Shown in pieces: positions 32,737 to 55,750 of a stretch of 64,000 nucleotides of DNA (its first letter is position 1; the number at the start of each line of letters is the position of its first letter). The stretch covers positions 2,805 through 66,804 of the forward strand of contig DATDRF010000103.1 of assembly GCA_035291905.1 (NCBI GenBank), written 5' to 3'. The notes under the pieces were generated by a model. It was not told the origin of the DNA. It ran no database searches and saw nothing but the letters and a program-made list of their open reading frames with translations. The translations under genes and the position numbers were made by a program. Source of the stretch: Bacteroidota bacterium (lineage in GTDB: Bacteria; Bacteroidota; Ignavibacteria; UBA10030).

Positions 32737-33327
32737 ATGAAAAAGAATATTGAACGCGTCGGCATATTCGGGGGAACATTCAATCCTCCTCACATGGGGC
32801 ATCTCCTGATTGCAGAGCGCGCAAGGGAGACAGCAGAGCTCAAGAAGGTTATTTTTATTCCTGCGTTTCAACCGCCTCACAAGGTAGGCCGTGAGATTAT
32901 CCCGCCGAAACATCGGCTTGAGATGACCAAACTTGCCGTGAAGGGGAATCGCTGGTTCGAGGTTTCCGACATTGAAATGCGCCAGGCCGGCATATCCTAC
33001 ACGGTTCAGACATTGCGCGTGCTCAGAACCATGCTGCCCGGGACAGAATTGTTTCTGATTCTCGGTTCGGACAGCCTGGCGGAGTACGACAGCTGGAAAG
33101 AACCGGGTGAAATACGGGCAATGGCCGACCTTCTTGTCTACGCTCGCGGAAACGAATCGACGAACCATCTGCCGCCCGGCGTCGAATTGGTTCGTGGACC
33201 GATGGTCGGAATCTCCTCGACCGACATCCGAAGCAGAGTCTCAAGGAGTATGTCCATCCGGTATCTTGTCCCGGCTTCCGTTGAAAGCTACATCAGGAAA
33301 CACCGCCTCTACCACCCACACCCATGA
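32737..33327 (+). CDS. nadD: Nicotinate-nucleotide adenylyltransferase
   Basis: RVGIFGGTFNPPHMGHL (HxGH nucleotidyltransferase motif). Confidence 0.85.
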   Translation: MKKNIERVGIFGGTFNPPHMGHLLIAERARETAELKKVIFIPAFQPPHKVGREIIPPKHRLEMTKLAVKGNRWFEVSDIEMRQAGISYTVQTLRVLRTMLPGTELFLILGSDSLAEYDSWKEPGEIRAMADLLVYARGNESTNHLPPGVELVRGPMVGISSTDIRSRVSRSMSIRYLVPASVESYIRKHRLYHPHP

Positions 33328-35522
33328 TTTCGAAAGACGAGATACGGCGAATCATCCGCACCGATCATCACGATCCGTTCTCAGTTCTTGGCATCCATCA
33401 AGATGACGGCGGAATTGCGGTTCGTGCTTTCCTTCCCGAGGCTGTATCGGCTTTTGTGGTCGAGAAAAAGGGGAATAAGAAAGCCGAAACCCGGATGGAG
33501 AAACTTGACGATGGGGGATTCTTTGAAGCGCGGTTCCCCGATCGGACATCGGTATTTTCTTATTCCCTCAAGCGCGTTGAACGTGACGGAAGTACAGCGA
33601 CGTTTGAGGATTCTTATCGTTTCCTGCCGACACTGACCGAATTCGATCTGCATCTCTTCGGCGCAGGGGATCATCATCATCTTTATGAGAAGCTCGGCGC
33701 GCATTATGCGGAAGTCGAGGGCCTCGGGGGAGTGCAGTTTGCGGTTTGGGCTCCTAATGCCCGGAGTGTGAGTCTTGTCGGCGACTTCAACGGATGGGAT
33801 CGGCGCAGGCATGCCATGCGGGTCCTGGGATCATCCGGAATATGGGAAATCTTTGTCCCGGGACTTGCAGAAGGCGAGCTGTACAAGTACCAGGTGAAAA
33901 CAAAAGACGGCCGTCTGCTGGATAAGACTGATCCGTTTGGATTTGCCATGGAAACAAGACCGAGGACAGCGTCCCGTGTCGATTTTCTGCATCATCATCG
34001 CTGGCAGGACAAGGCTTGGCTGGATAGAAGGGCTTCTGAGGATATCATGGCGAGACCTGTTGCCGCCTATGAGATCCACCTGGGATCGTGGATGCGCGTC
34101 ACCGAAGAAGGGAACAGGTGGCTGACGTACAGGGAACTTGCAGAGAAGTTGATTCCCTATGTTCGTGAACGCGGTTTTAACTACGTAGAGCTGCTTCCCA
34201 TCCTCGAACACCCTCTTGATGCATCGTGGGGGTATCAGGTGACCGGTTACTTTGCACCGACGAGCCGTTTTGGCCGCCCGGAAGATTTCATGTTCTTTGT
34301 AGACCAATGTCACCAGAACGGAATTGGAGTGATCCTCGACTGGGTGCCGGCGCATTTTCCCAAGGACTCCCATGCGCTGGGGCAATTTGACGGAACGGCG
34401 TTGTATGAACACGCCGACCCGCGCAAGGGAGAACATCAGGATTGGGGGACGCTGATTTTCAATTATGGAAGGAATGAAGTACGTAACTTTTTGTTGAGCA
34501 GCGCACTCTTCTGGCTTGATAAATATCACCTCGACGGCATTCGCATCGACGCGGTCGCATCGATGCTGTATCTTGACTATTCACGGAAGGAGGGGGAGTG
34601 GCTCCCGAACAAATACGGAGGCCGCGAGAATCTGGAGGCACTTGATTTCCTCCGCCATTTGAACGGTGTCGTTCATCAGTATTTCCCCGGCGTCCTGATG
34701 ATTGCTGAGGAATCGACCGCCTGGCCCGGCGTTACGAACGGTCTCGAATTCGGCGGCCTTGGGTTCGATCTGAAATGGAACATGGGATGGATGCATGACA
34801 CGCTGGAGTACTTTTTGAAAGATCCCATCTACCGCTCGCATCACCAGGGGAAACTGACATTTGCGTTGCTGTATGCGTTTACGGAACGGTTCATGCTTCC
34901 TCTCTCGCATGATGAGGTCGTCCACGGGAAGGGATCGCTGCTGAGGAAGATGCCGGGAGATGACTGGCAGAAGTTCGCCAACCTGAGGCTGCTGCTTTCG
35001 CTCATGTACACGTTCCCTGGGAAGAAACTCCTGTTCATGGGAGGCGAATTGGCGCAATGGGATGAGTGGTATCATGAACGTTCGCTCGATTGGCATTTAT
35101 TGAACTACGGCCCGCATAAGGGCGTTCAACGGCTGATCGACGATCTGAATCGGCTTTACTGCAAAGAGCAGGCGCTGCATCAGGTCGATTTTCATTATTC
35201 GGGATTCGAGTGGATCGATTTTCACGATGCATCGAACAGTGTGATATCGTTTGAGCGAAAAGCGGCCGATGCGAGAGAGCGCGTCATTGTCGTCCTGAAT
35301 TTCACTCCGATTCCGAGGGACAACTACCGGGTCGGCGTCCCTGAAAAATCGGCCTATGCGGAGCTTCTTAACAGCGATTCGCAGTTCTACGGTGGAGGAA
35401 ATATCGGTAACATCGGTATGATCGAATCAGTGGATGTTGCGATGCATGGCCGTCCTTATTCGCTTCCGTTGGTGTTGCCGCCGCTGGCTGCGCTTGTCCT
35501 TAAGGTTAAAACCCGGAAGTAA
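33324..35522 (+). CDS. glgB: 1,4-alpha-glucan branching enzyme
   Basis: CBM48 plus GH13 catalytic region (GVILDWVPAHF, GIRIDAVASMLY, FTPIPRDNYRVGVP); 732 aa; ATGA overlap with nadD. Confidence 0.9.
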   Translation: MISKDEIRRIIRTDHHDPFSVLGIHQDDGGIAVRAFLPEAVSAFVVEKKGNKKAETRMEKLDDGGFFEARFPDRTSVFSYSLKRVERDGSTATFEDSYRFLPTLTEFDLHLFGAGDHHHLYEKLGAHYAEVEGLGGVQFAVWAPNARSVSLVGDFNGWDRRRHAMRVLGSSGIWEIFVPGLAEGELYKYQVKTKDGRLLDKTDPFGFAMETRPRTASRVDFLHHHRWQDKAWLDRRASEDIMARPVAAYEIHLGSWMRVTEEGNRWLTYRELAEKLIPYVRERGFNYVELLPILEHPLDASWGYQVTGYFAPTSRFGRPEDFMFFVDQCHQNGIGVILDWVPAHFPKDSHALGQFDGTALYEHADPRKGEHQDWGTLIFNYGRNEVRNFLLSSALFWLDKYHLDGIRIDAVASMLYLDYSRKEGEWLPNKYGGRENLEALDFLRHLNGVVHQYFPGVLMIAEESTAWPGVTNGLEFGGLGFDLKWNMGWMHDTLEYFLKDPIYRSHHQGKLTFALLYAFTERFMLPLSHDEVVHGKGSLLRKMPGDDWQKFANLRLLLSLMYTFPGKKLLFMGGELAQWDEWYHERSLDWHLLNYGPHKGVQRLIDDLNRLYCKEQALHQVDFHYSGFEWIDFHDASNSVISFERKAADARERVIVVLNFTPIPRDNYRVGVPEKSAYAELLNSDSQFYGGGNIGNIGMIESVDVAMHGRPYSLPLVLPPLAALVLKVKTRK

Positions 35523-35630: not shown

Positions 35631-36359
35631 ATGCCTGCAAAACCCCTCCGCCTACTTGTTGTTGATGACCAGGATTCATTCCGAATGAGCCTCGAAATCG
35701 CGCTGACAATGTCCGATAAGCACGAGGTGACAATGAGTGACTCCGGTGAAGATGCGATTGAGAAACTGAAGGCCGATCAGTTTGATGTCGTTCTTTTGGA
35801 TTACAAAATGCCGGGTCTCTCGGGCCTTGACGTCCTTGCGTGGATGCACGAGAACAGGGTCGATTCGCCGGTGATCATGCTTACCGCAGCCGGATCGGAA
35901 GAGGTGGCTGTCGAAGCGATGAAGTTGGGTGCCTACGACTACCTTTCAAAAGAGCACATTGAAATCGATCGCCTTCCTCTGGTTATCAACAGCGTCTTTG
36001 AACGGTACCTCTACAGAAGAGAGGTCTTGCGCCGCGAGCGGGAAGAACATCAAATGCGGCAGCAACAGCAGGATCTCGCCTCGCTGCAAATGTTCCAGAA
36101 TACAGTCAGCTCGATCGGACAGTTTGTCAACAACAGCCTCGCCGTACTGTCAAAAAGAATAGCTGAGACCGAAACGGACCTTCTTCAGTACGTGACAAAC
36201 GACGGGCGCAAGTCGTTTCGCGATTCCTTCTCAGCCCTGAAACAGGATTTCGATGTTGCATTTTCAGGCCTCAAGTCCATGTTGGACCTTACGACCCTCG
36301 TTACTCAAAAACTCGAAGGGATCCAGAACCCAAAGAGTACCGACCAGCCGAAGCAGTAA
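35631..36359 (+). CDS. Response regulator: CheY-like receiver plus about 120-aa helical C-terminal domain of unknown type
   Basis: LRLLVVDDQDSFRMSL...VVLLDYKMPGLSGLDVL...VIMLTAAGSEE...KLGAYDYLSKE; no recognisable DNA-binding output domain. Confidence 0.75.
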   Translation: MPAKPLRLLVVDDQDSFRMSLEIALTMSDKHEVTMSDSGEDAIEKLKADQFDVVLLDYKMPGLSGLDVLAWMHENRVDSPVIMLTAAGSEEVAVEAMKLGAYDYLSKEHIEIDRLPLVINSVFERYLYRREVLRREREEHQMRQQQQDLASLQMFQNTVSSIGQFVNNSLAVLSKRIAETETDLLQYVTNDGRKSFRDSFSALKQDFDVAFSGLKSMLDLTTLVTQKLEGIQNPKSTDQPKQ

Positions 36360-36368
36360 TCCGCCGCG

Positions 36369-38057
36369 ATGCCGAATCGGCTTTCCACCCGCCCCGCAAA
36401 GCTCCCTCGGGACGACAATCAACGGTCAAAAAAAGAACTTCTCAAAGAACTGAGAATGCTTCGCCGTCAGTACGTGAACTTGAAAATCCTCAAGTATGAG
36501 CACGACAAAGCTCTTGCAGCGCTGAAGGAAAGCCAGGAGAAGTATCGCAGAATTGTCGAAAGTGCGAGCGACATCATCTACCGAACAGATGAGCGCGGGT
36601 ATTTCACGTACGCCAATCATGCTGCAGTTCGGATCATCGGGTATCCGATCAAGGAGATTTTGGGCAGGAATTACATGGAGCTCCTCCGCCCGGATTATCG
36701 TAAGAAAGCGTATCGTCACTACACGATGCAAACAGAACAGCGGATCCCGAGCACCTACTTCGAATTCCCCGCCGTGTCAAATGAGGGTGAGACTGTTTGG
36801 CTTGGACAGAACGTTCAGCTGATCATGCAAGGGAAGAAGATCGTCGAACTGCAGGCGGTCGCAAGGGATATCACTGAGGTCAAACGCGCGGAGGAAGAAA
36901 GAGCTCGTTTGGAGGTTCAGCTTCGCCAGTCCCAGAAAATGGAATCGATCGGGAGGCTTGCCGGCGGCATAGCTCACGATTTCAACAACATCCTGGGAAT
37001 TATTCTCGCCCATGTCAGTCTCCTGGAGCGTTCCGATCTTCCTGCCGAACAAAAGTCTTCAAGTATCGAAGCCTTGAACAGGACAGTCGGATGAGCCAAG
37101 GGAATGGTCGGTGAACTCCTGACCCTGGCGCGAAAGAGCGAACCATCATTGGAGTATCTGGATGTCGAAAAGGCAATTCGGGAATTTGCCCCGGTCATCG
37201 AGGGGACATTCCCGCGGTCGATTTCATTGTCGATTCGATGTACGCGGGGATTGCCCGGCATCGACGCCGATCCGAACCAATTTCACCAGCTTCTCCTCAA
37301 TCTGTTTGTGAACGCGCGCGATGCCATGCCCAATGGGGGGAAGATCGAGGTGACAACCGAACAATATTTCGGCGAGTCTGTGCGGATGATATTTCGGGAA
37401 GCGGAAGAAACGCCGTACGTCGGGATCAGGGTGAAAGACACGGGCATCGGAATGGACGAGTCCACGAGGGTGCGTATCTTCGAGCCGTTCTTCTCTACAA
37501 AGCCGCAGGGAAGAGGAACGGGCCTTGGGTTGGCTGTGGCATACGGAATCATCAAGAGTCACCGTGGATTTGTCGATGTGGAAAGCAACCCGGGAAAAGG
37601 ATCGACGTTCTTCTTGTTTTTTCCGAAGGGGGTCCGCACTCCAAGGGCGGCTGCGCCCGTGCGGAAACAGGCAACTACCCCCGGTGGGAATGAGACGATT
37701 CTCTTTGTCGAGGATGAAGATCTCCTCCGTGAAGTCATATCGAAGATACTGAAAGAAAAGGGGTACACGGTCCTTGAGGCAGTGGACGGAATAGGGGCGG
37801 TCGATGTATTCATGAAGAATCATAAGCAGATTGACCTTGTGCTTTCCGACTTCGGATTACCGAAACTCGGCGGATGGGAAGCGTGCATTACGATGAAGGA
37901 AATCAAACCTGAGGTGCGGGTCATTCTGGCGAGCGGCTTTATTGAGCCGGCAGTCAGGAATGAAATGGCAATAGCGGGAATCACAACGTTCGTCCAGAAG
38001 CCTTACGTCCCTGACGAGGTTCTGCAAAACATCAGGGAATTGATGAAAAAGGGATGA
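36369..38057 (+). pseudogene. Hybrid sensor histidine kinase (PAS, HisKA, HATPase_c, REC) interrupted by an in-frame TGA at 37092-37094
   Basis: Track ORFs 36369..37094 and 37104..38057 are in the same frame. The stop falls inside the HisKA helix: ...IAHDFNNILGIILAHVSLLERSDLPAEQKSSSIEALNRTVG*AKGMVGELLTLARKS.... Downstream are N/G1/G2 boxes (NARDAMPNGG, DTGIGMDE, GTGLGLAV) and a receiver (ILFVEDEDLLREV...LVLSDFGLP). Confidence 0.6.
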
Positions 38058-38065
38058 CGTTTTCT

Positions 38066-38259
38066 GGTAGTGGGTCAGTTTGATGTAATCTTCAACGCGA
38101 AGGCGCAGAGGTCGCAGCCGACCATTCCGCCATATTGAAATGGTGAATTGATCACTTCGGCAGGCAGGTCTGCGTCCTCCCCGCCTGCCTCAAAGATCTT
38201 ATTGAGGCGGGCAGGCGCGACTCTGCGTTGTAGTCTAGTATTGAAACTGACCCACTACC
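38066..38259. mobile_element. MITE-like nonautonomous element copy A (194 bp): 16-bp perfect terminal inverted repeats, 8-bp target-site duplication CGTTTTCT
   Basis: Left TIR GGTAGTGGGTCAGTTT (38066-38081) is the exact reverse complement of AAACTGACCCACTACC (38244-38259). Direct repeats CGTTTTCT lie at 38058-38065 and 38260-38267. Internal core cacttcggcaggcaggtctgcgtcct and gcgactctgcgttgtagtcta is shared with copy B at 55594-55750. Confidence 0.7.
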
Positions 38260-38419
38260 CGTTTTCTTGAAGTCAGGGTGAAAGTTTTGTATTTTCCATT
38301 ATTGCACGCGCCCGTACCCGCCAACATCACCCACGAACGCTTTTTTTGTGAGTGGCAGTGATTTTTGAGCGTCCCGCCACAAGGCGGGATCTGGACAAGT
38401 GCTTCAAAGAATTTCATAG

Positions 38420-38493
38420 CCCCCGTAGCTCAGATGGATAGAGCAGCGGTTTCCTAAACCGCTTGTCGGACGTTCGAGTCGTCTCGGGGGCAC
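38420..38493 (+). tRNA. tRNA-Arg (anticodon CCT)
   Basis: Acceptor GCCCCCG/CGGGGGC plus discriminator A; D arm GCTCAGATGGATAGAGC; anticodon arm GCGGT-TTCCTAA-ACCGC (CCT); T arm GGACG-TTCGAGT-CGTCT; CCA not encoded. Confidence 0.9.
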
Positions 38494-38505
38494 AATCGGT
38501 TTCAC

Positions 38506-38568
38506 CGTTGTCGGACGTTCTCAGCCGTAGGCTGATCCGCCTTTGGCGGAGAGTCGTCTCGGGGGCAC
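38506..38568 (+). repeat. Direct duplicate of the 3' 34 nt of tRNA-Arg (33/34 identical), interrupted by a 30-bp insert forming two perfect 6-bp hairpins
   Basis: ccgttgtcggacgttc (38506-38521) and gagtcgtctcgggggca (38552-38568) match tRNA positions 38459-38493. The insert 38522-38551 is tcagccgtaggctga plus tccgcctttggcgga. No 5' acceptor strand upstream, so this is not a complete tRNA. Confidence 0.75.
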
Positions 38569-38723
38569 TATCTCCCGGGAATTTTGTGGGATTCGGAGTG
38601 ATTTGGATTTGCTTCCCTCATTGACTTTTTGGGGAAAAAGCGCAACTATGAAAAACATGTTTTCGGCCCCTCCCGCCGCAAGACTTCTCCACTGAGATCT
38701 CACTACTGGAACGGAGAGTTGTT

Positions 38724-40364
38724 GTGGATTCATCCCAAGCACTGAATGCCCTTCACTTCGGAAGAGTAGACGCAGAAACCGATTACCGGCTCAGCCAATG
38801 CTTCGTTGGGACAGAGATGCTTCGTCAGGCCCTGCTTCCCCAACATTCGCTCTTCATCGGCCCCAAGGGATCAGGGAAGAGCGCCCTCTTCAGACTTCTC
38901 TGCGATGACCTCGGTCCATGGAAATCGCTCCTGCCCAAGGGATATGAGATCATCTACAGAATCCCGGCCACCGGACTCCAGAGTGAGAAATACCTCTCGG
39001 GAGTCGACCTTGACGAGTTGAGCCCCCAGACGGCAAACGATTTTCGGTCTTTCTGGCTCCTGTATATCGGCCTCAAGACTGCGACGACCCTGGTGGAAGA
39101 CCAGCGGATGCAGCATCTTGCGTCACATGCAGAGAATAGTCGGATCAGGGAACAATACGCATCGTTGTCGCGTATTGTGAGAACGCTCGGTCTCGTCGAA
39201 GCGGCAAATTCCGTGGAAAAGATCAAACAGAAGATCGACAGTCTGATCGAATCCCCCGAGAATTCTCTGCCAATTTCGGGAGAAGTGGGGAAACGGCTGT
39301 CGGTGAGTTTCCGCAACCGCACCGGGATCGCCATTATCACGCTGCTCGATATCATCGACGGCCTCCTGCAGGAAACAAAATGCCTTTCCTGGATCCTTCT
39401 CGACAAGCTGGATCTCCTCTTCTTTGATGACATCACCAAACTGCGGACATCGATAGCCGGTTTGGTGCAGCTTCTTGTGGAATACAGCGACCGGTTCAAG
39501 AACATCCATTTCAAAGTCTTTCTCCGAAGGGATATTTATAAGCAGCTGCGGATTGTCAACAAATCTCATCTTGTCAGTTACACCCATGACATGAGATGGC
39601 GAGGGCCGTGGCTGATCAAGCTGTTGGTCGCGCGTGCGGTTTCCGACGAGCGTGTGCAAAAACACTGCGAGTCAATTGTGGGTGAACAAGTCGATGTCGG
39701 AAAGGTCATCAACGGCACCGACGAACTTGTCTTGAAGGTGTTTTATTCGATTTTCGAGGAGCGAATGGGGATCATCAAGCGGGAAGGATTCGGCCCGCAC
39801 ACGCACGAGTGGATTCTGAAGAGGCTGGTCGACGGACTTGGAATGAGCTTCCCGAGAGAGATTATCCATCTTGGGAACGTCGCTGTTCAGAGACAACGTG
39901 AGATTATCCGGAGAGAGGGCCTCTCGGAGCGGAGCAAGCTGGTTGGGGGGAGAGCTCTGCGCAAGGCATTCGATGCGGTGTCTGCGTACCGTTGTGACAC
40001 CTACCTCAACTCGGAGTTTCCTCACCTCGCCGGGCACATCGATGCCTTCCGCGGAAAAGAGGTATCGACGTTCGAGCGCGACGAATTGTATCGCGCCTTT
40101 GAAGAGTTACAGCCCAGCGGCGACGACGCAATCAGAGCTGTTCACGACGTAGGGCTCATTACTCCGATAGGAAAGAACGTCGATTCAGCGCTCAAGTTTG
40201 AGGTCCCTCTGCTGTACCGAAGTGGGCTCGGTATTGTTGAACGCAAGCTGAAGAAACGAAATCGGAAAGTTCGTTCGATGGAAGAGAAGAAGCCGCAGCA
40301 ATCGGAATACTCCAAGCCTGAGAAGAACGAACAGGAAGAAATGAACATCCCGCTTTCTCTCTGA
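38724..40364 (+). CDS. Orphan P-loop NTPase of unrecognised family (546 aa) with lysine/glutamate-rich C-terminal tail
   Basis: Walker A FIGPKGSGKSALFRLL (SMC/RecF/ABC-like GxxGSGKS), candidate Walker B WILLDKLDLLFFDD; GTG start with GGAG upstream; tail KKRNRKVRSMEEKKPQQSEYSKPEKNEQEE; no TM segments. Confidence 0.55.
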   Translation: MDSSQALNALHFGRVDAETDYRLSQCFVGTEMLRQALLPQHSLFIGPKGSGKSALFRLLCDDLGPWKSLLPKGYEIIYRIPATGLQSEKYLSGVDLDELSPQTANDFRSFWLLYIGLKTATTLVEDQRMQHLASHAENSRIREQYASLSRIVRTLGLVEAANSVEKIKQKIDSLIESPENSLPISGEVGKRLSVSFRNRTGIAIITLLDIIDGLLQETKCLSWILLDKLDLLFFDDITKLRTSIAGLVQLLVEYSDRFKNIHFKVFLRRDIYKQLRIVNKSHLVSYTHDMRWRGPWLIKLLVARAVSDERVQKHCESIVGEQVDVGKVINGTDELVLKVFYSIFEERMGIIKREGFGPHTHEWILKRLVDGLGMSFPREIIHLGNVAVQRQREIIRREGLSERSKLVGGRALRKAFDAVSAYRCDTYLNSEFPHLAGHIDAFRGKEVSTFERDELYRAFEELQPSGDDAIRAVHDVGLITPIGKNVDSALKFEVPLLYRSGLGIVERKLKKRNRKVRSMEEKKPQQSEYSKPEKNEQEEMNIPLSL

Positions 40365-40383
40365 CCCCCCCCCCTAAAAAATA

Positions 40384-40413
40384 AACCGACTGATTTTGTC
40401 AGTCGGTTTTTTT
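40384..40413 (+). terminator. Rho-independent terminator, first of two consecutive hairpins
   Basis: AACCGACTGA (40384-40393), loop ttttg, TCAGTCGGTT (40399-40408), then a T-run. A second hairpin ACTGGTT-gggagg-AACCAG plus T5 follows at 40414-40437. A C10 homopolymer precedes at 40365-40374. Confidence 0.65.
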
Positions 40414-40655
40414 ACTGGTTGGGAGGAACCAGTTTTTGAACCCGCCGAAGCGAGCTCAAACTCACTACCCAAGATAGAAGATTGCCTCGATCAAGCTGTG
40501 ACAAAAGTCACCAGAGACGGGTTGCCGGAAAAATCCTTTCGCTCACGTGTCCGCAGTAGATAGTCCTAGGGAGGAAACGGTTTCCTTGATTTCGAAGAGA
40601 AGTTTGGTACATTGGACTGCTGCCAAGAGAATTCCACATCAACGCTTTAGGGCCC

Positions 40656-55593: not shown

Positions 55594-55750
55594 GGTAGTG
55601 TCTCAATTTGGATGTAGTTCTTAACGCAGAGACCTGCCTGCGTGCCGACGATCCCAAGTCGAAATTCCCGATGAGTGTTCACTTCGGCAGGCAGGTCTGC
55701 GTCCTTTGCGACTCTGCGTTGTAGTCTATAATCGAAATTGAGACACTACC
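55594..55750. mobile_element. MITE-like nonautonomous element copy B (157 bp): 16-17 bp perfect TIRs, 8-bp target-site duplication CAGTCTTG
   Basis: GGTAGTGTCTCAATTT (55594-55609) is the reverse complement of AAATTGAGACACTACC (55735-55750). Direct repeats CAGTCTTG lie at 55586-55593 and 55751-55758. Shares TIR head GGTAGTG and the internal core with copy A; internal inverted repeat cgcagagacctgcctgcg / gcaggcaggtctgcg. Confidence 0.7.

Follow-up and report, generated by a model that had tools for sequence, protein, structure and literature searches.

The single gene between tRNA-Arg(CCT) and proS in the window (the whole 64,000-nucleotide stretch that was analysed) encodes a P-loop ATPase of the Sll1717 family, within a slowly evolving, chromosomally fixed subfamily confined to some Ignavibacteria lineages. 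The protein is best explained, with a probability of roughly one half, as an ATP-dependent switch that works with REC proteins of a two-component pathway, its gene having been gained once and inherited vertically thereafter. Stable inheritance and recurrent two-component neighbours make a resident role in signalling or regulation more likely than recently acquired anti-phage cargo. A preliminary description of the locus had presented it as an orphan of unrecognised family and a possible eroded defence island; that label is removed here, and the gene is placed in a family with a curated model and in a defined class of fold. The analysis also supplies a first comparative-genomic context for the uncharacterised Sll1717 family.

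Family, motifs and predicted fold of the ATPase

The protein matches the NCBIfam model NF047389 ("P-loop ATPase, Sll1717 family") at 160.4 bits (cutoff 75; E = 7.7e-47), with residues 12-481 aligned to model positions 1-417 of 454. The family takes its name from Synechocystis Sll1717, and a literature search for Sll1717, PF24389 and PDC-M28 returned nothing. The protein is also no orphan, since at least 239 full-length homologues with 50-85% identity occur in Ignavibacteria-type MAGs (mean column identity 59%). They form three to four clusters at 50% identity, beyond which the scores drop: 866/676 bits, then 362, then about 290. Because the subfamily was detected in only ~40 GTDB species genomes, it is lineage-restricted rather than core. 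Each genome carries one to three paralogues, every one of them at its own stable locus, and the clades of the ATPase tree match distinct, stable housekeeping contexts. The nearest relatives of the window ATPase are chromosomal paralogues within the same bacterial group.

The motifs that define the ATPase core (Table 1) are conserved throughout. The window protein has the Walker A lysine, the Walker B aspartates (D227/D230), R268/D270 and P377/R378, none of which varies in a superfamily alignment of 71 sequences; this agrees with the earlier reading of a Walker A near the N-terminus and a Walker B about 200 aa later. The Walker B has the NACHT/STAND-like hhhhDxxD form. The ATPase is predicted to be catalytically competent, and the conserved end of strand 4, with R268/D270, is a candidate sensor-1 or arginine-finger region. 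The helical insertion is the most variable structured region, with a majority fraction of 0.54 (0.45 for residues 125-200) compared with 0.72-0.82 elsewhere. The low-complexity C-terminal tail, previously described as K/E-rich, is indeed K/R/E-rich after residue 505, with 12 K/R and 8 D/E among 41 residues; it is poorly conserved, and the pLDDT of residues 508-546 lies below 50.

The structural model predicts an AAA+ fold related to ORC/Cdc6, archaeal ATPases and STAND proteins, followed by a winged-helix-like domain in the C-terminal part. Its best fold matches are Cdc6, ORC subunits, MuB and TnsC, and further neighbours are RdrA, BrxC and Avs. The SMC/RecF/ABC-style identity initially assigned to the protein is ruled out by this fold and by Pfam matches that are only of P-loop length (ABC_tran, 13.9 bits with a cutoff of 25, residues 43-65). 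The combination of an LSGGQ signature with a Pfam ABC_tran or SMC_N match, by which ABC-type ATPases were recognised, was not found in the protein. A PDB sequence search with the single protein gave no match, a PDB search with two family profiles gave P-loop-level matches only, and the BFVD viral structure library yielded generic AAA ATPases only.

Table 1. Coordinates of features at and around the ATPase gene (positions in the window)
Feature	Position	Strand	Remarks
Response regulator (RR), REC + C-terminal helical domain without Pfam match	35631..36359	+	probable functional partner; Pfam
Hybrid PAS-HisKA-HATPase-REC histidine kinase (HK)	36369..38057	+	in-frame TAG at 37092-37094 in the window
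tRNA-Arg(CCT)	38419..38493	+	conserved upstream neighbour of the ATPase in clade A
Polymorphic 75-bp segment producing the att-like tRNA 3'-end duplication	38476..38550	+	missing from same-species contigs L002 and L003
Candidate ATPase promoter, TTGACT, 17 nt, AACTAT	38621..38649	+	inferred from alignment of 7 species
Invariant leader motif CCTCCCGCCGCA	38669..38680	+	loop and 3' arm of a small hairpin, ~45 nt before the ATPase start
Sll1717-family AAA+ P-loop ATPase gene (Ignavibacteria subfamily, clade A)	38724..40364	+	546 aa, GTG start
Walker A GPKGSGKS, residues 46-53	38859..38882	+	K48/G49/G51/K52 invariant in the 71-sequence superfamily alignment
~110-aa helical insertion between strands 2 and 3 of the ATPase core, residues 104-217	39033..39374	+	DSSP on the model
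Walker B WILLDKLD, residues 223-230	39390..39413	+	W223, D227 and D230 invariant
Conserved strand-4 end KVFLRRDIY	39513..39539	+	R268/D270 invariant in the superfamily alignment
Invariant P377-R378(-E379)	39852..39860	+	candidate sensor-2 arginine, lid/helical region
C-terminal winged-helix-like domain, residues 446-505	40059..40238	+	from the model and fold matches only
Low-complexity tail, basic then acidic, residues 506-546	40239..40361	+	predicted disordered
Bidirectional intrinsic terminator, 12-bp stem + T-run	40383..40416	.	preceded by the C10 tract; hairpin at 40383-40409

The tRNA-Arg(CCT)/proS junction and the inheritance of the gene

The 546-aa ORF is a genuine gene. The start is conserved in six other species, with GTG or ATG as the codon, and a GGAGA sequence precedes the GTG by 6-11 nt. 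Gene and tRNA calls confirm that it is the sole gene between the tRNA and proS (40656), as had been reported, and the reported GTG start and C10 tract (40365-40374) are likewise correct; the tract has an identical length in four other same-species contigs (L001-L004). Of two terminators described downstream, the strong bidirectional hairpin with its T-run was recovered and the second was not found. The candidate promoter scores 8/12, under the threshold of the promoter scan, and its TTGAC/GACTTT box is kept across clade A in an alignment of seven species. The leader motif is identical in seven species and its flanks vary; the hairpin to which it contributes shows two compensatory pairs. A riboswitch-like reading of this leader was abandoned because the folding z-score was not significant. 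In an Rfam scan of the locus and of the pseudo-tRNA loci, the tRNA was the sole match.

The att-like duplication of the tRNA 3'-end, to which the preliminary description had attached the gene, is real (38463-38497 repeated at 38508-38520 and 38551-38572), but it is produced by a polymorphic 75-bp indel that lies wholly upstream of the ATPase. This segment is the remnant of a pseudo-tRNA element, of which a larger homologous version occupies the same site in other species, in tandem in the sister-lineage contig L064. Both repeat copies (38463-38572) precede the ORF, with no copy downstream, so the repeats do not bracket the gene; they precede the ATPase promoter in every species, which places the gene outside the repeat-bounded segment. 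Element and gene also occur separately, the element without the ATPase in L064 and L065 and the ATPase without the element in L005. The MITE-like element noted upstream does exist (38066-38259); its 16-bp inverted ends are perfect, and a related copy lies at 55594-55750. The element is missing in L005. The TIR-like remnant claimed downstream could not be recovered with up to three mismatches allowed. Called genes and Pfam matches reveal no integrase or recombinase within 10 kb on either side of the ATPase, mobility and defence genes are likewise absent within 10 kb, and no nuclease or effector partner is seen near it. The repeat, the larger element at the same place in related species, the variable junction content among lineages and the MITE immediately upstream are what one would expect if the ATPase were leftover cargo of a tRNA-integrated mobile island that has since lost its integrase and partners and left the att-like repeat behind. 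The position of the gene outside the repeats, its independence from both the element and the MITE, the lack of a third repeat copy or a recombinase, its native composition and its chromosomal closest relatives make this the least probable of the explanations considered, and one that we regard as highly improbable.

The preliminary description had proposed comparing the composition of the gene with that of its flanking genes, and this comparison shows no foreign signature: GC is flat at 0.53 across the region, the codon log-likelihood of the ATPase gives z = 0.02, and its GC3 lies within ~1 sd of window genes. The gene is under purifying selection: six SNPs occur within the species, and every one is synonymous. 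Six other species keep the order RR-HK-tRNA-Arg(CCT)-ATPase-ProS-DnaE, and across them identity is 66-79% for the ATPase, 72-82% for ProS and 72-87% for DnaE; divergence of the ATPase thus tracks that of its neighbours ProS and DnaE. It is present in all seven clade-A species and in four same-species contigs. Neither the sister lineage (L064/L065) nor the outgroups L068 and L080 have the ATPase at the junction, and in the outgroups the tRNA abuts proS. Absence from the sister lineage indicates that the gene is not essential and points to a single, ancient gain with vertical descent thereafter. The ATPase was probably inserted once between tRNA-Arg(CCT) and proS in the ancestor of a family-level clade and has been vertically inherited since. 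The proposed insertion at a tRNA gene therefore seems likely as a historical event, with stable vertical inheritance since then. Conserved synteny with proS, together with confident placement in some housekeeping ATPase family, had been named as the outcome that would speak against a defence or mobile-island origin; the synteny is conserved and no known housekeeping family was matched, so only half of that combination is found. In clades A and B the ATPase lies near tRNA-Arg, with ThiI or ProS nearby. A role in tRNA biology was considered and set aside as indistinguishable from inherited synteny.

Two-component neighbours and the candidate functions of the ATPase

Genes encoding REC or other two-component proteins recur beside subfamily ATPases in at least six arrangements. 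Up to 750 bp from the ATPase the density of REC genes is 1.46 per 10 kb, and at 1.5-10 kb it is ~0.31 per 10 kb; the enrichment is a rough figure, since REC genes occur widely and the loci lack phylogenetic independence. At one locus (L054) a CheY-like gene is translationally coupled to the ATPase gene, with a 4-nt stop/start overlap; in the L171/L172/L011 lineage a full-length orthologue of the window RR (62% identity) follows a 63%-identical ATPase at a distance of 48-99 nt; and at P0028 and P0031 an OmpR-type RR and HK adjoin the ATPase and TM245, a conserved 245-aa membrane protein. The RR-HK pair and the ATPase have a common phyletic pattern at the tRNA-Arg locus. The REC association is missing in clade C (~20 loci) and partial in clade B. 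The neighbourhoods of homologues had been suggested as a place to look for a conserved nuclease or effector partner that may have been lost here; the recurrent neighbours are two-component or REC genes, and none is a defence gene. An OmpA-like neighbour in clade C2 was rejected as a Zorya component, its PADLOC ZorB matches being judged generic to OmpA/MotB domains.

The RR upstream of the tRNA is the probable functional partner of the ATPase, as the gene neighbourhood suggests. ATP at the Walker A/B site would cause a conformational or oligomeric change, and the winged-helix-like domain and basic tail of the modelled C-terminal region may bind nucleic acid. The switch would cooperate with the RR and the hybrid kinase, and the ATPase would serve as an output or co-factor of their pathway; the RR carries no Pfam-recognised output domain. 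Several observations sit less comfortably with a signalling role: the wider superfamily is accessory or conflict-like, a PDC-M28C match exists, the subfamily is lineage-restricted, and the kinase has a premature stop in this window, where its TAG codon is a polymorphism. A more specific proposal, which we put forward only tentatively and consider doubtful, is a new type of two-component output module. Here a REC-helical RR (elsewhere a CheY-like protein, or an OmpR-type RR/HK with TM245) would act via a separate winged-helix ORC/Cdc6-STAND-like ATPase domesticated from a phage/plasmid conflict NTPase family (Sll1717 or DS-41-like). If RR and ATPase are coupled, a conflict-type NTPase would have been recruited into cellular signalling, and the pair would provide a simple system for REC control of STAND/ORC-like switches. 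The Sll1717 family comprises a mobile branch, in prophages and plasmids and possibly related to DS-41, and a second branch that is a fixed part of Ignavibacteria chromosomes and is associated with two-component signalling. Nothing in the ATPase findings is contrary to known biology.

A defence role stays a live rival because distant members of the superfamily occur in prophages and defence-like plasmid regions and weakly resemble PDC-M28C and DS-41. On that account the ATPase would be an anti-phage or abortive-infection NTPase that acts as a single-gene system fixed in the chromosome, domesticated from phage or plasmid Sll1717 genes; as a STAND-like sensor it would recognise a component of the phage and block infection through ATP-dependent oligomerisation. 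We consider this possible but on balance unlikely. Nineteen full-length relatives (24-31% identity), all assigned to NF047389, lie within prophages or phages beside terminase, portal, integrase or Zot genes, in variable contexts, while plasmid relatives adjoin an AbiEi-domain gene with an N6-methylase and, in another case, hsdR. The PADLOC model PDC-M28C, which has no curated cutoff in the set used, matches residues 208-468 at positions 158-420 of 480 (E = 8.8e-14; relatives down to 1.6e-19). DS-41 ("AAA2", WP_033812887.1) is a single-gene anti-phage system of ~502 aa validated in E. coli in the DefensePredictor paper (PMC13092281), and matches to the NCBIfam model DS41_1 (NF053860) are colinear but sub-threshold, at 17.9 bits (E = 0.0012; equivalog cutoff 370) for the window ATPase; prophage-borne Sll1717 members reach 2.6e-16. 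The fold neighbours RdrA, BrxC and Avs, the gain of the gene by a tRNA and its absence from the sister lineage are compatible with such a role, and the variable helical insertion could act as the sensor. However, divergence equals that of ProS and DnaE, synteny is stable in every clade over long evolutionary distances, composition is native, polymorphism is synonymous only, and the surrounding genes have housekeeping or two-component roles and never form a defence island. The protein has neither an effector domain nor a partner; tblastn of cultured phage genomes with the ATPase gave no match, and no plasmid relative is closer than 36% identity. Compared directly with 399 of the 502 residues of DS-41, neither the subfamily profile (probability 4.8%) nor BLASTP with the ATPase (E = 0.45) gave a significant result, and the broad Sll1717 profile reached a probability of 33% (E = 4.5e-4) over its N-terminal 93 columns only, aligned to the first ~100 residues of DS-41. 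PDC-M28 itself is a candidate that awaits validation. Its genes A and B do not accompany the ATPase, which is flanked by RR, HK, tRNA and ProS, and the A/B models matched none of the neighbours that the PADLOC scan covered, namely the RR, TM245 and the OmpA-like gene.

The best fold matches would also suit a strict DNA-transaction AAA+ protein, either an ORC/Cdc6- or DnaC-like replication factor or a MuB/TnsC-like target selector, as would the position of the gene 3.5 kb upstream of dnaE and the fusion of some distant relatives to ParA/MinD-like ATPases. Many close homologues carry a precomputed match to Pfam PF24389 (ORC-CDC6-like), but the window ATPase scores 19.7 bits over residues 27-281 (E = 3.9e-4), below the gathering threshold of 27. 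The closeness to dnaE is a by-product of the insertion of the gene at the tRNA/proS junction and is not seen in the other paralogue clades; a replication role based on dnaE proximity was accordingly rejected. With no transposase or partition genes nearby and the ATPase dispensable in the sister lineage, such a function seems very unlikely.

Comparison with known systems

The window ATPase shares with other NF047389 proteins a length of ~480-550 aa, a single-gene architecture, an FG..AE.E N-terminal motif and the GxKGSGKS, hhhDxLD, RxD and PRE motifs. It differs in belonging to a tight and separate subfamily with a basic/acidic tail and stable chromosomal loci by two-component genes, whereas the typical family members found are prophage- or plasmid-borne in variable contexts. 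DS-41 likewise consists of one P-loop ATPase gene (~500 aa), and its motifs follow the same order (GxxGxGKSA, hhIDKLDE and SPRELI), in which SPRE corresponds by eye to P377-R378-E379; DS-41 is an accessory E. coli gene, in contrast to the stably inherited chromosomal ATPase described here. The likeness to PDC-M28 lies in the gene C HMM match, which is stronger in relatives, but coverage is partial and PDC-M28 is a multi-gene candidate. RADAR RdrA, BREX BrxC and Avs/NLR STAND ATPases align with TM-scores of at most 0.34 and are much larger, with sensor/effector domains or partner genes that the window ATPase lacks. ORC/Cdc6 initiators and the archaeal ATPases SSO1545 (2fna) and PAB2304 (2qen) share only 11-15% sequence identity with it and do not have the additional helical insertion between strands 2 and 3.

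MalT/AfsR-type STAND and NtrC-type REC-AAA+-HTH regulators join a P-loop/AAA+ switch to a DNA-binding helix-turn-helix, under REC control in NtrC. Pfam detects no Sigma54_activat, LuxR or SARP domain in the ATPase, and its REC partner would be a separate polypeptide, with coupling suggested by gene neighbourhood. The analogy to these regulators would be a functional one, in which the three functions are distributed over neighbouring genes, a REC-only RR and an AAA+ protein with a winged-helix-like domain.

The ATPase and its protein family

The ATPase is the only gene between tRNA-Arg(CCT) and proS, as follows from the positions of the two (table below), and its position, length and start codon agree with the preliminary description. 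Six other species also start this gene with GTG or ATG, and a GGAGA box precedes the start by 6–11 nt. The Walker A and Walker B motifs are genuine: K48, G49, G51, K52, D227 and D230 are invariant in alignments of 35 subfamily and 71 superfamily sequences, as are W111, W223, R268, D270, P377 and R378. The low-complexity tail reported as K/E-rich is present as a K/R/E-rich, predicted disordered region. Downstream, the C10 tract was recovered, and of two reported terminators one was found.

The ATPase scores 160.4 bits against NCBIfam NF047389, "P-loop ATPase, Sll1717 family" (curated cutoff 75 bits), and has at least 239 full-length homologues at 50–85% identity in a database search, all from Ignavibacteria/Bacteroidota MAGs where named. 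Its description as an orphan of unrecognised family was therefore mistaken. So was the label "ABC-like", since matches to ABC and SMC models are confined to the P-loop. A Pfam ORC-CDC6-like match is below threshold, and the PADLOC candidate PDC-M28C matches partially (E = 8.8e-14). In an exhaustive profile search, the wider superfamily comprises 1,605 clusters at 50% identity, of which the Ignavibacteria subfamily accounts for 3–4, with a sharp fall in score beyond them. The ATPase is a conserved and unremarkable member of an AAA+ family that is named but functionally uncharacterised.

Two further features are particular to clade A of the ATPase tree, which includes the window protein. Its members finish, behind the variable tail, with a conserved (E/D)(E/D)xNIP motif that could serve as a short linear interaction motif; the ending is missing in other clades or replaced by MN. 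In the leader, a 12-mer is invariant in 7/7 clade-A species while the surrounding intergenic sequence varies. It lies in a small hairpin with an anti-Shine-Dalgarno-like CCUCC in the loop, and translational control is one possibility for its role. Only a related sequence, CCCTCCCG, is present in the L171 lineage.

Features of the ATPase locus, with selected features of related loci (window positions unless a locus is named)
Feature	Location	Strand	Remarks
GlgB (glycogen branching enzyme)	33324–35522		between NadD-like gene and RR
RR (response regulator)	35631–36359	+	
HK (hybrid histidine kinase)	36369–38057	+	
In-frame TAG in HK	37092–37094		
MITE-like element	38066–38259		upstream of ATPase, between HK and tRNA; perfect 16-bp inverted ends
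Related MITE-like copy	55594–55750		
tRNA-Arg(CCT)	38419–38493		
Extra 75-bp segment	38476–38550		
Pseudo-tRNA remnant	38494–38572		
Pseudo-tRNA copies	L064 1140–1310, 1445–1615; L065 1196–1415; L006 9527–9705; L007 9758–9900; L009 2129–2330		
Leader 12-mer	38669–38680		CCTCCCGCCGCA
ATPase ORF	38724–40364	+	546 aa, GTG start
Walker A	residues 46–53		GPKGSGKS
Walker B	residues 223–230		WILLDKLD
Acidic-NIP motif	40335–40361		residues 538–546
C10 tract	40365–40374		3′ of ATPase
Terminator	40383–40409		strong, bidirectional
proS	from 40656		
TM245	L013 2932–3669; L015 9107–9844; L173 3878–4615	−	examples; clade B loci (L012–L062)
ParA/MinD-like fusion	L170 4114–6786		

Inheritance of the locus and the tRNA-Arg(CCT) junction

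Foreign composition had been raised as a check on the mobile-cargo proposal, and the gene proved native: GC is flat at about 0.53 across the region, codon usage does not depart from the window average (z = 0.02), with GC3 at 0.647 (0.613 ± 0.029 in the window). Composition thus speaks against a foreign or mobile ATPase. Four other same-species contigs encode an identical protein, and all 6/6 SNPs within the ORF are synonymous. The order RR-HK-tRNA-Arg(CCT)-ATPase-ProS-(Aldh)-DnaE is kept in six other species, where ATPase identity (66–79%) tracks that of ProS (72–82%) and DnaE (72–87%). Scanning a single genome for each GTDB species yielded 59 loci. Clades of the ATPase tree coincide with distinct, stable contexts of ordinary chromosomal genes: ProS in clade A, a divergently paired membrane protein in clade B, an aminotransferase, or FAD-oxidase/Fe-S/OmpA-like genes upstream with ThiI downstream. 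Two or three paralogues coexist in many genomes. Integrase, nuclease and defence genes were not seen near the ATPase or at the relatives' loci examined; no relative was present in the cultured phage genomes searched, and a plasmid search gave none above 36% identity.

The clade-B membrane protein (TM245; ~245 aa, multi-pass) lies ~200 bp upstream of the ATPase paralogue at at least 22 loci, is absent from the window, has no Pfam or PADLOC match and could act as that paralogue's partner. tRNA genes occur close to clade-B loci too: tRNA-Arg(ACG/TCG), often adjoining a CheY-like gene, 0.2–3 kb upstream on the opposite strand (L013, L014, L015, L017, L025, L026, L053), or tRNA-Glu/Gln downstream (L022, L056). 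This proximity in both clades is a curious recurrence, not separable from inherited synteny. GlgB, which in this species separates the NadD-like gene from the RR and is missing there in the other clade-A species examined (L005–L008, L010), adds another lineage-specific insertion to the neighbourhood.

In a comparison anchored on ProS in metagenomes, the tRNA directly abuts ProS at two loci (45–60 nt; L068, L080), is separated from it by a pseudo-tRNA element alone at L064 and L065, and by other chromosomal genes at L103 and L110. ATPase carriers are monophyletic in the ProS tree, with L064/L065/L066 as sister group. The most parsimonious history would be a single ancient insertion at the junction followed by vertical inheritance; this much of the proposed tRNA-island cargo finds support, and the rest of the island reading does not.

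The reported att-like duplication of tRNA-Arg exists, with two copies of the tRNA 3′-end repeat in each of the window and two same-species contigs (L001, L004), but it does not bracket the ATPase, since both copies lie upstream of it. These three carry the extra 75-bp segment flanked by an 18–22-nt direct repeat; L002 and L003, of the same species, have a plain tRNA-Arg, a polymorphism consistent with deletion between the repeats. In other species, a pseudo-tRNA element of ~160 nt directly follows tRNA-Arg(CCT); it is a copy of tRNA-Arg that begins in the D/anticodon stem and extends to the 3′ end; its anticodon loop holds two inserted hairpins and its T-loop a small one. Compensatory changes occur in 10/38 predicted pairs, and Rfam gave no match. 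Among 170+ loci, the element was found at this one only; L064 has it as a tandem pair, and the window retains a remnant. It may be either a mini integrative element in decay or a structured RNA not described before. Because element and ATPase occur apart (element alone in L064 and L065, ATPase alone in L005) and the ATPase is always distal to both repeats, the scar at this tRNA records a separate history.

The upstream MITE-like element is likewise real, with terminal inverted repeats GGTAGTGGGTCAGTTT plus a variant with 3 mismatches and a second copy elsewhere in the window; the downstream TIR-like remnant was not recovered by a search allowing up to 3 mismatches. The copy between HK and tRNA has a shorter, different interior in L003, and the element is absent from the related species L005.

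Two-component neighbours and candidate functions

Genes with a receiver (REC) domain are the commonest neighbour family of ATPase loci, in at least six arrangements, at 1.46 per 10 kb within 750 bp versus about 0.31 at 1.5–10 kb, a comparison that ignores kinship. The RR-HK pair repeats the presence/absence pattern of the ATPase: it lies upstream of the tRNA in clade A and is absent from L064/L065 and from L110, which retains the GT4-NadD-like-tRNA order. At L011/L171/L172 the ATPases share 61–63% identity with the window protein, and the window RR has a full-length orthologue there (62% identity, non-REC helical half included), 48–99 nt downstream of the ATPase. In the outgroup L054, in a setting of EF-G-like, HIT and LeuRS genes, a 129-aa CheY-like gene follows so closely that its start overlaps the ATPase stop codon, and at P0028 and P0031 an OmpR-type RR and HK precede TM245 and the ATPase. 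Because the association is missing in clade C and the enrichment ignores phylogeny, we grade the linkage as moderate; that the RR-ATPase pair has survived rearrangement with both members equally diverged offers the best functional clue on hand. A conserved partner was sought in homologues' neighbourhoods with a split outcome: two-component genes recur, and a nuclease or effector-type defence partner does not. The window HK is broken by an in-frame TAG at a position where the intact 562-aa gene of L001 has AAG (Lys); the difference reflects a nonsense polymorphism or else a sequencing error.

We assign a probability of roughly one half to the ATPase being an ATP-dependent, probably nucleic-acid-binding switch that works with the adjacent two-component system. 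The coupling, if real, would represent a new kind of two-component output, one that derives from a conflict-type NTPase. That the gene is instead a fixed single-gene anti-phage NTPase seems rather unlikely to us. Distant Sll1717 members with 24–31% identity over their full length lie inside real prophages or phages, adjoining terminase, portal, protease, Zot and integrase genes in variable contexts with no conserved partner, and plasmid relatives adjoin an AbiEi-domain gene with a methylase, or hsdR. Together with partial matches of distant members to NCBIfam DS41_1 (up to 2.6e-16), these contexts suggest that the superfamily plausibly includes defence genes. Some distant proteins, of 860–920 aa, carry an N-terminal ParA/MinD-like ATPase fusion (P0176, P0179, P0241, P0266, P0268 and L170); one, on a Nostoc plasmid, lies beside a type I R-M hsdR gene and a recombinase gene.

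The known system for comparison is DS-41 ("AAA2"), a single gene of ~502 aa whose anti-phage activity was validated in E. coli (PMC13092281). The window ATPase reaches only 17.9 bits against the DS41_1 cutoff of 370, too low for membership of DS-41, and the DS-41 sequence has no significant match to the subfamily profile; against the broader Sll1717 profile, DS-41 aligns over the N-terminal 93 columns only (E = 4.5e-4, probability 33%).
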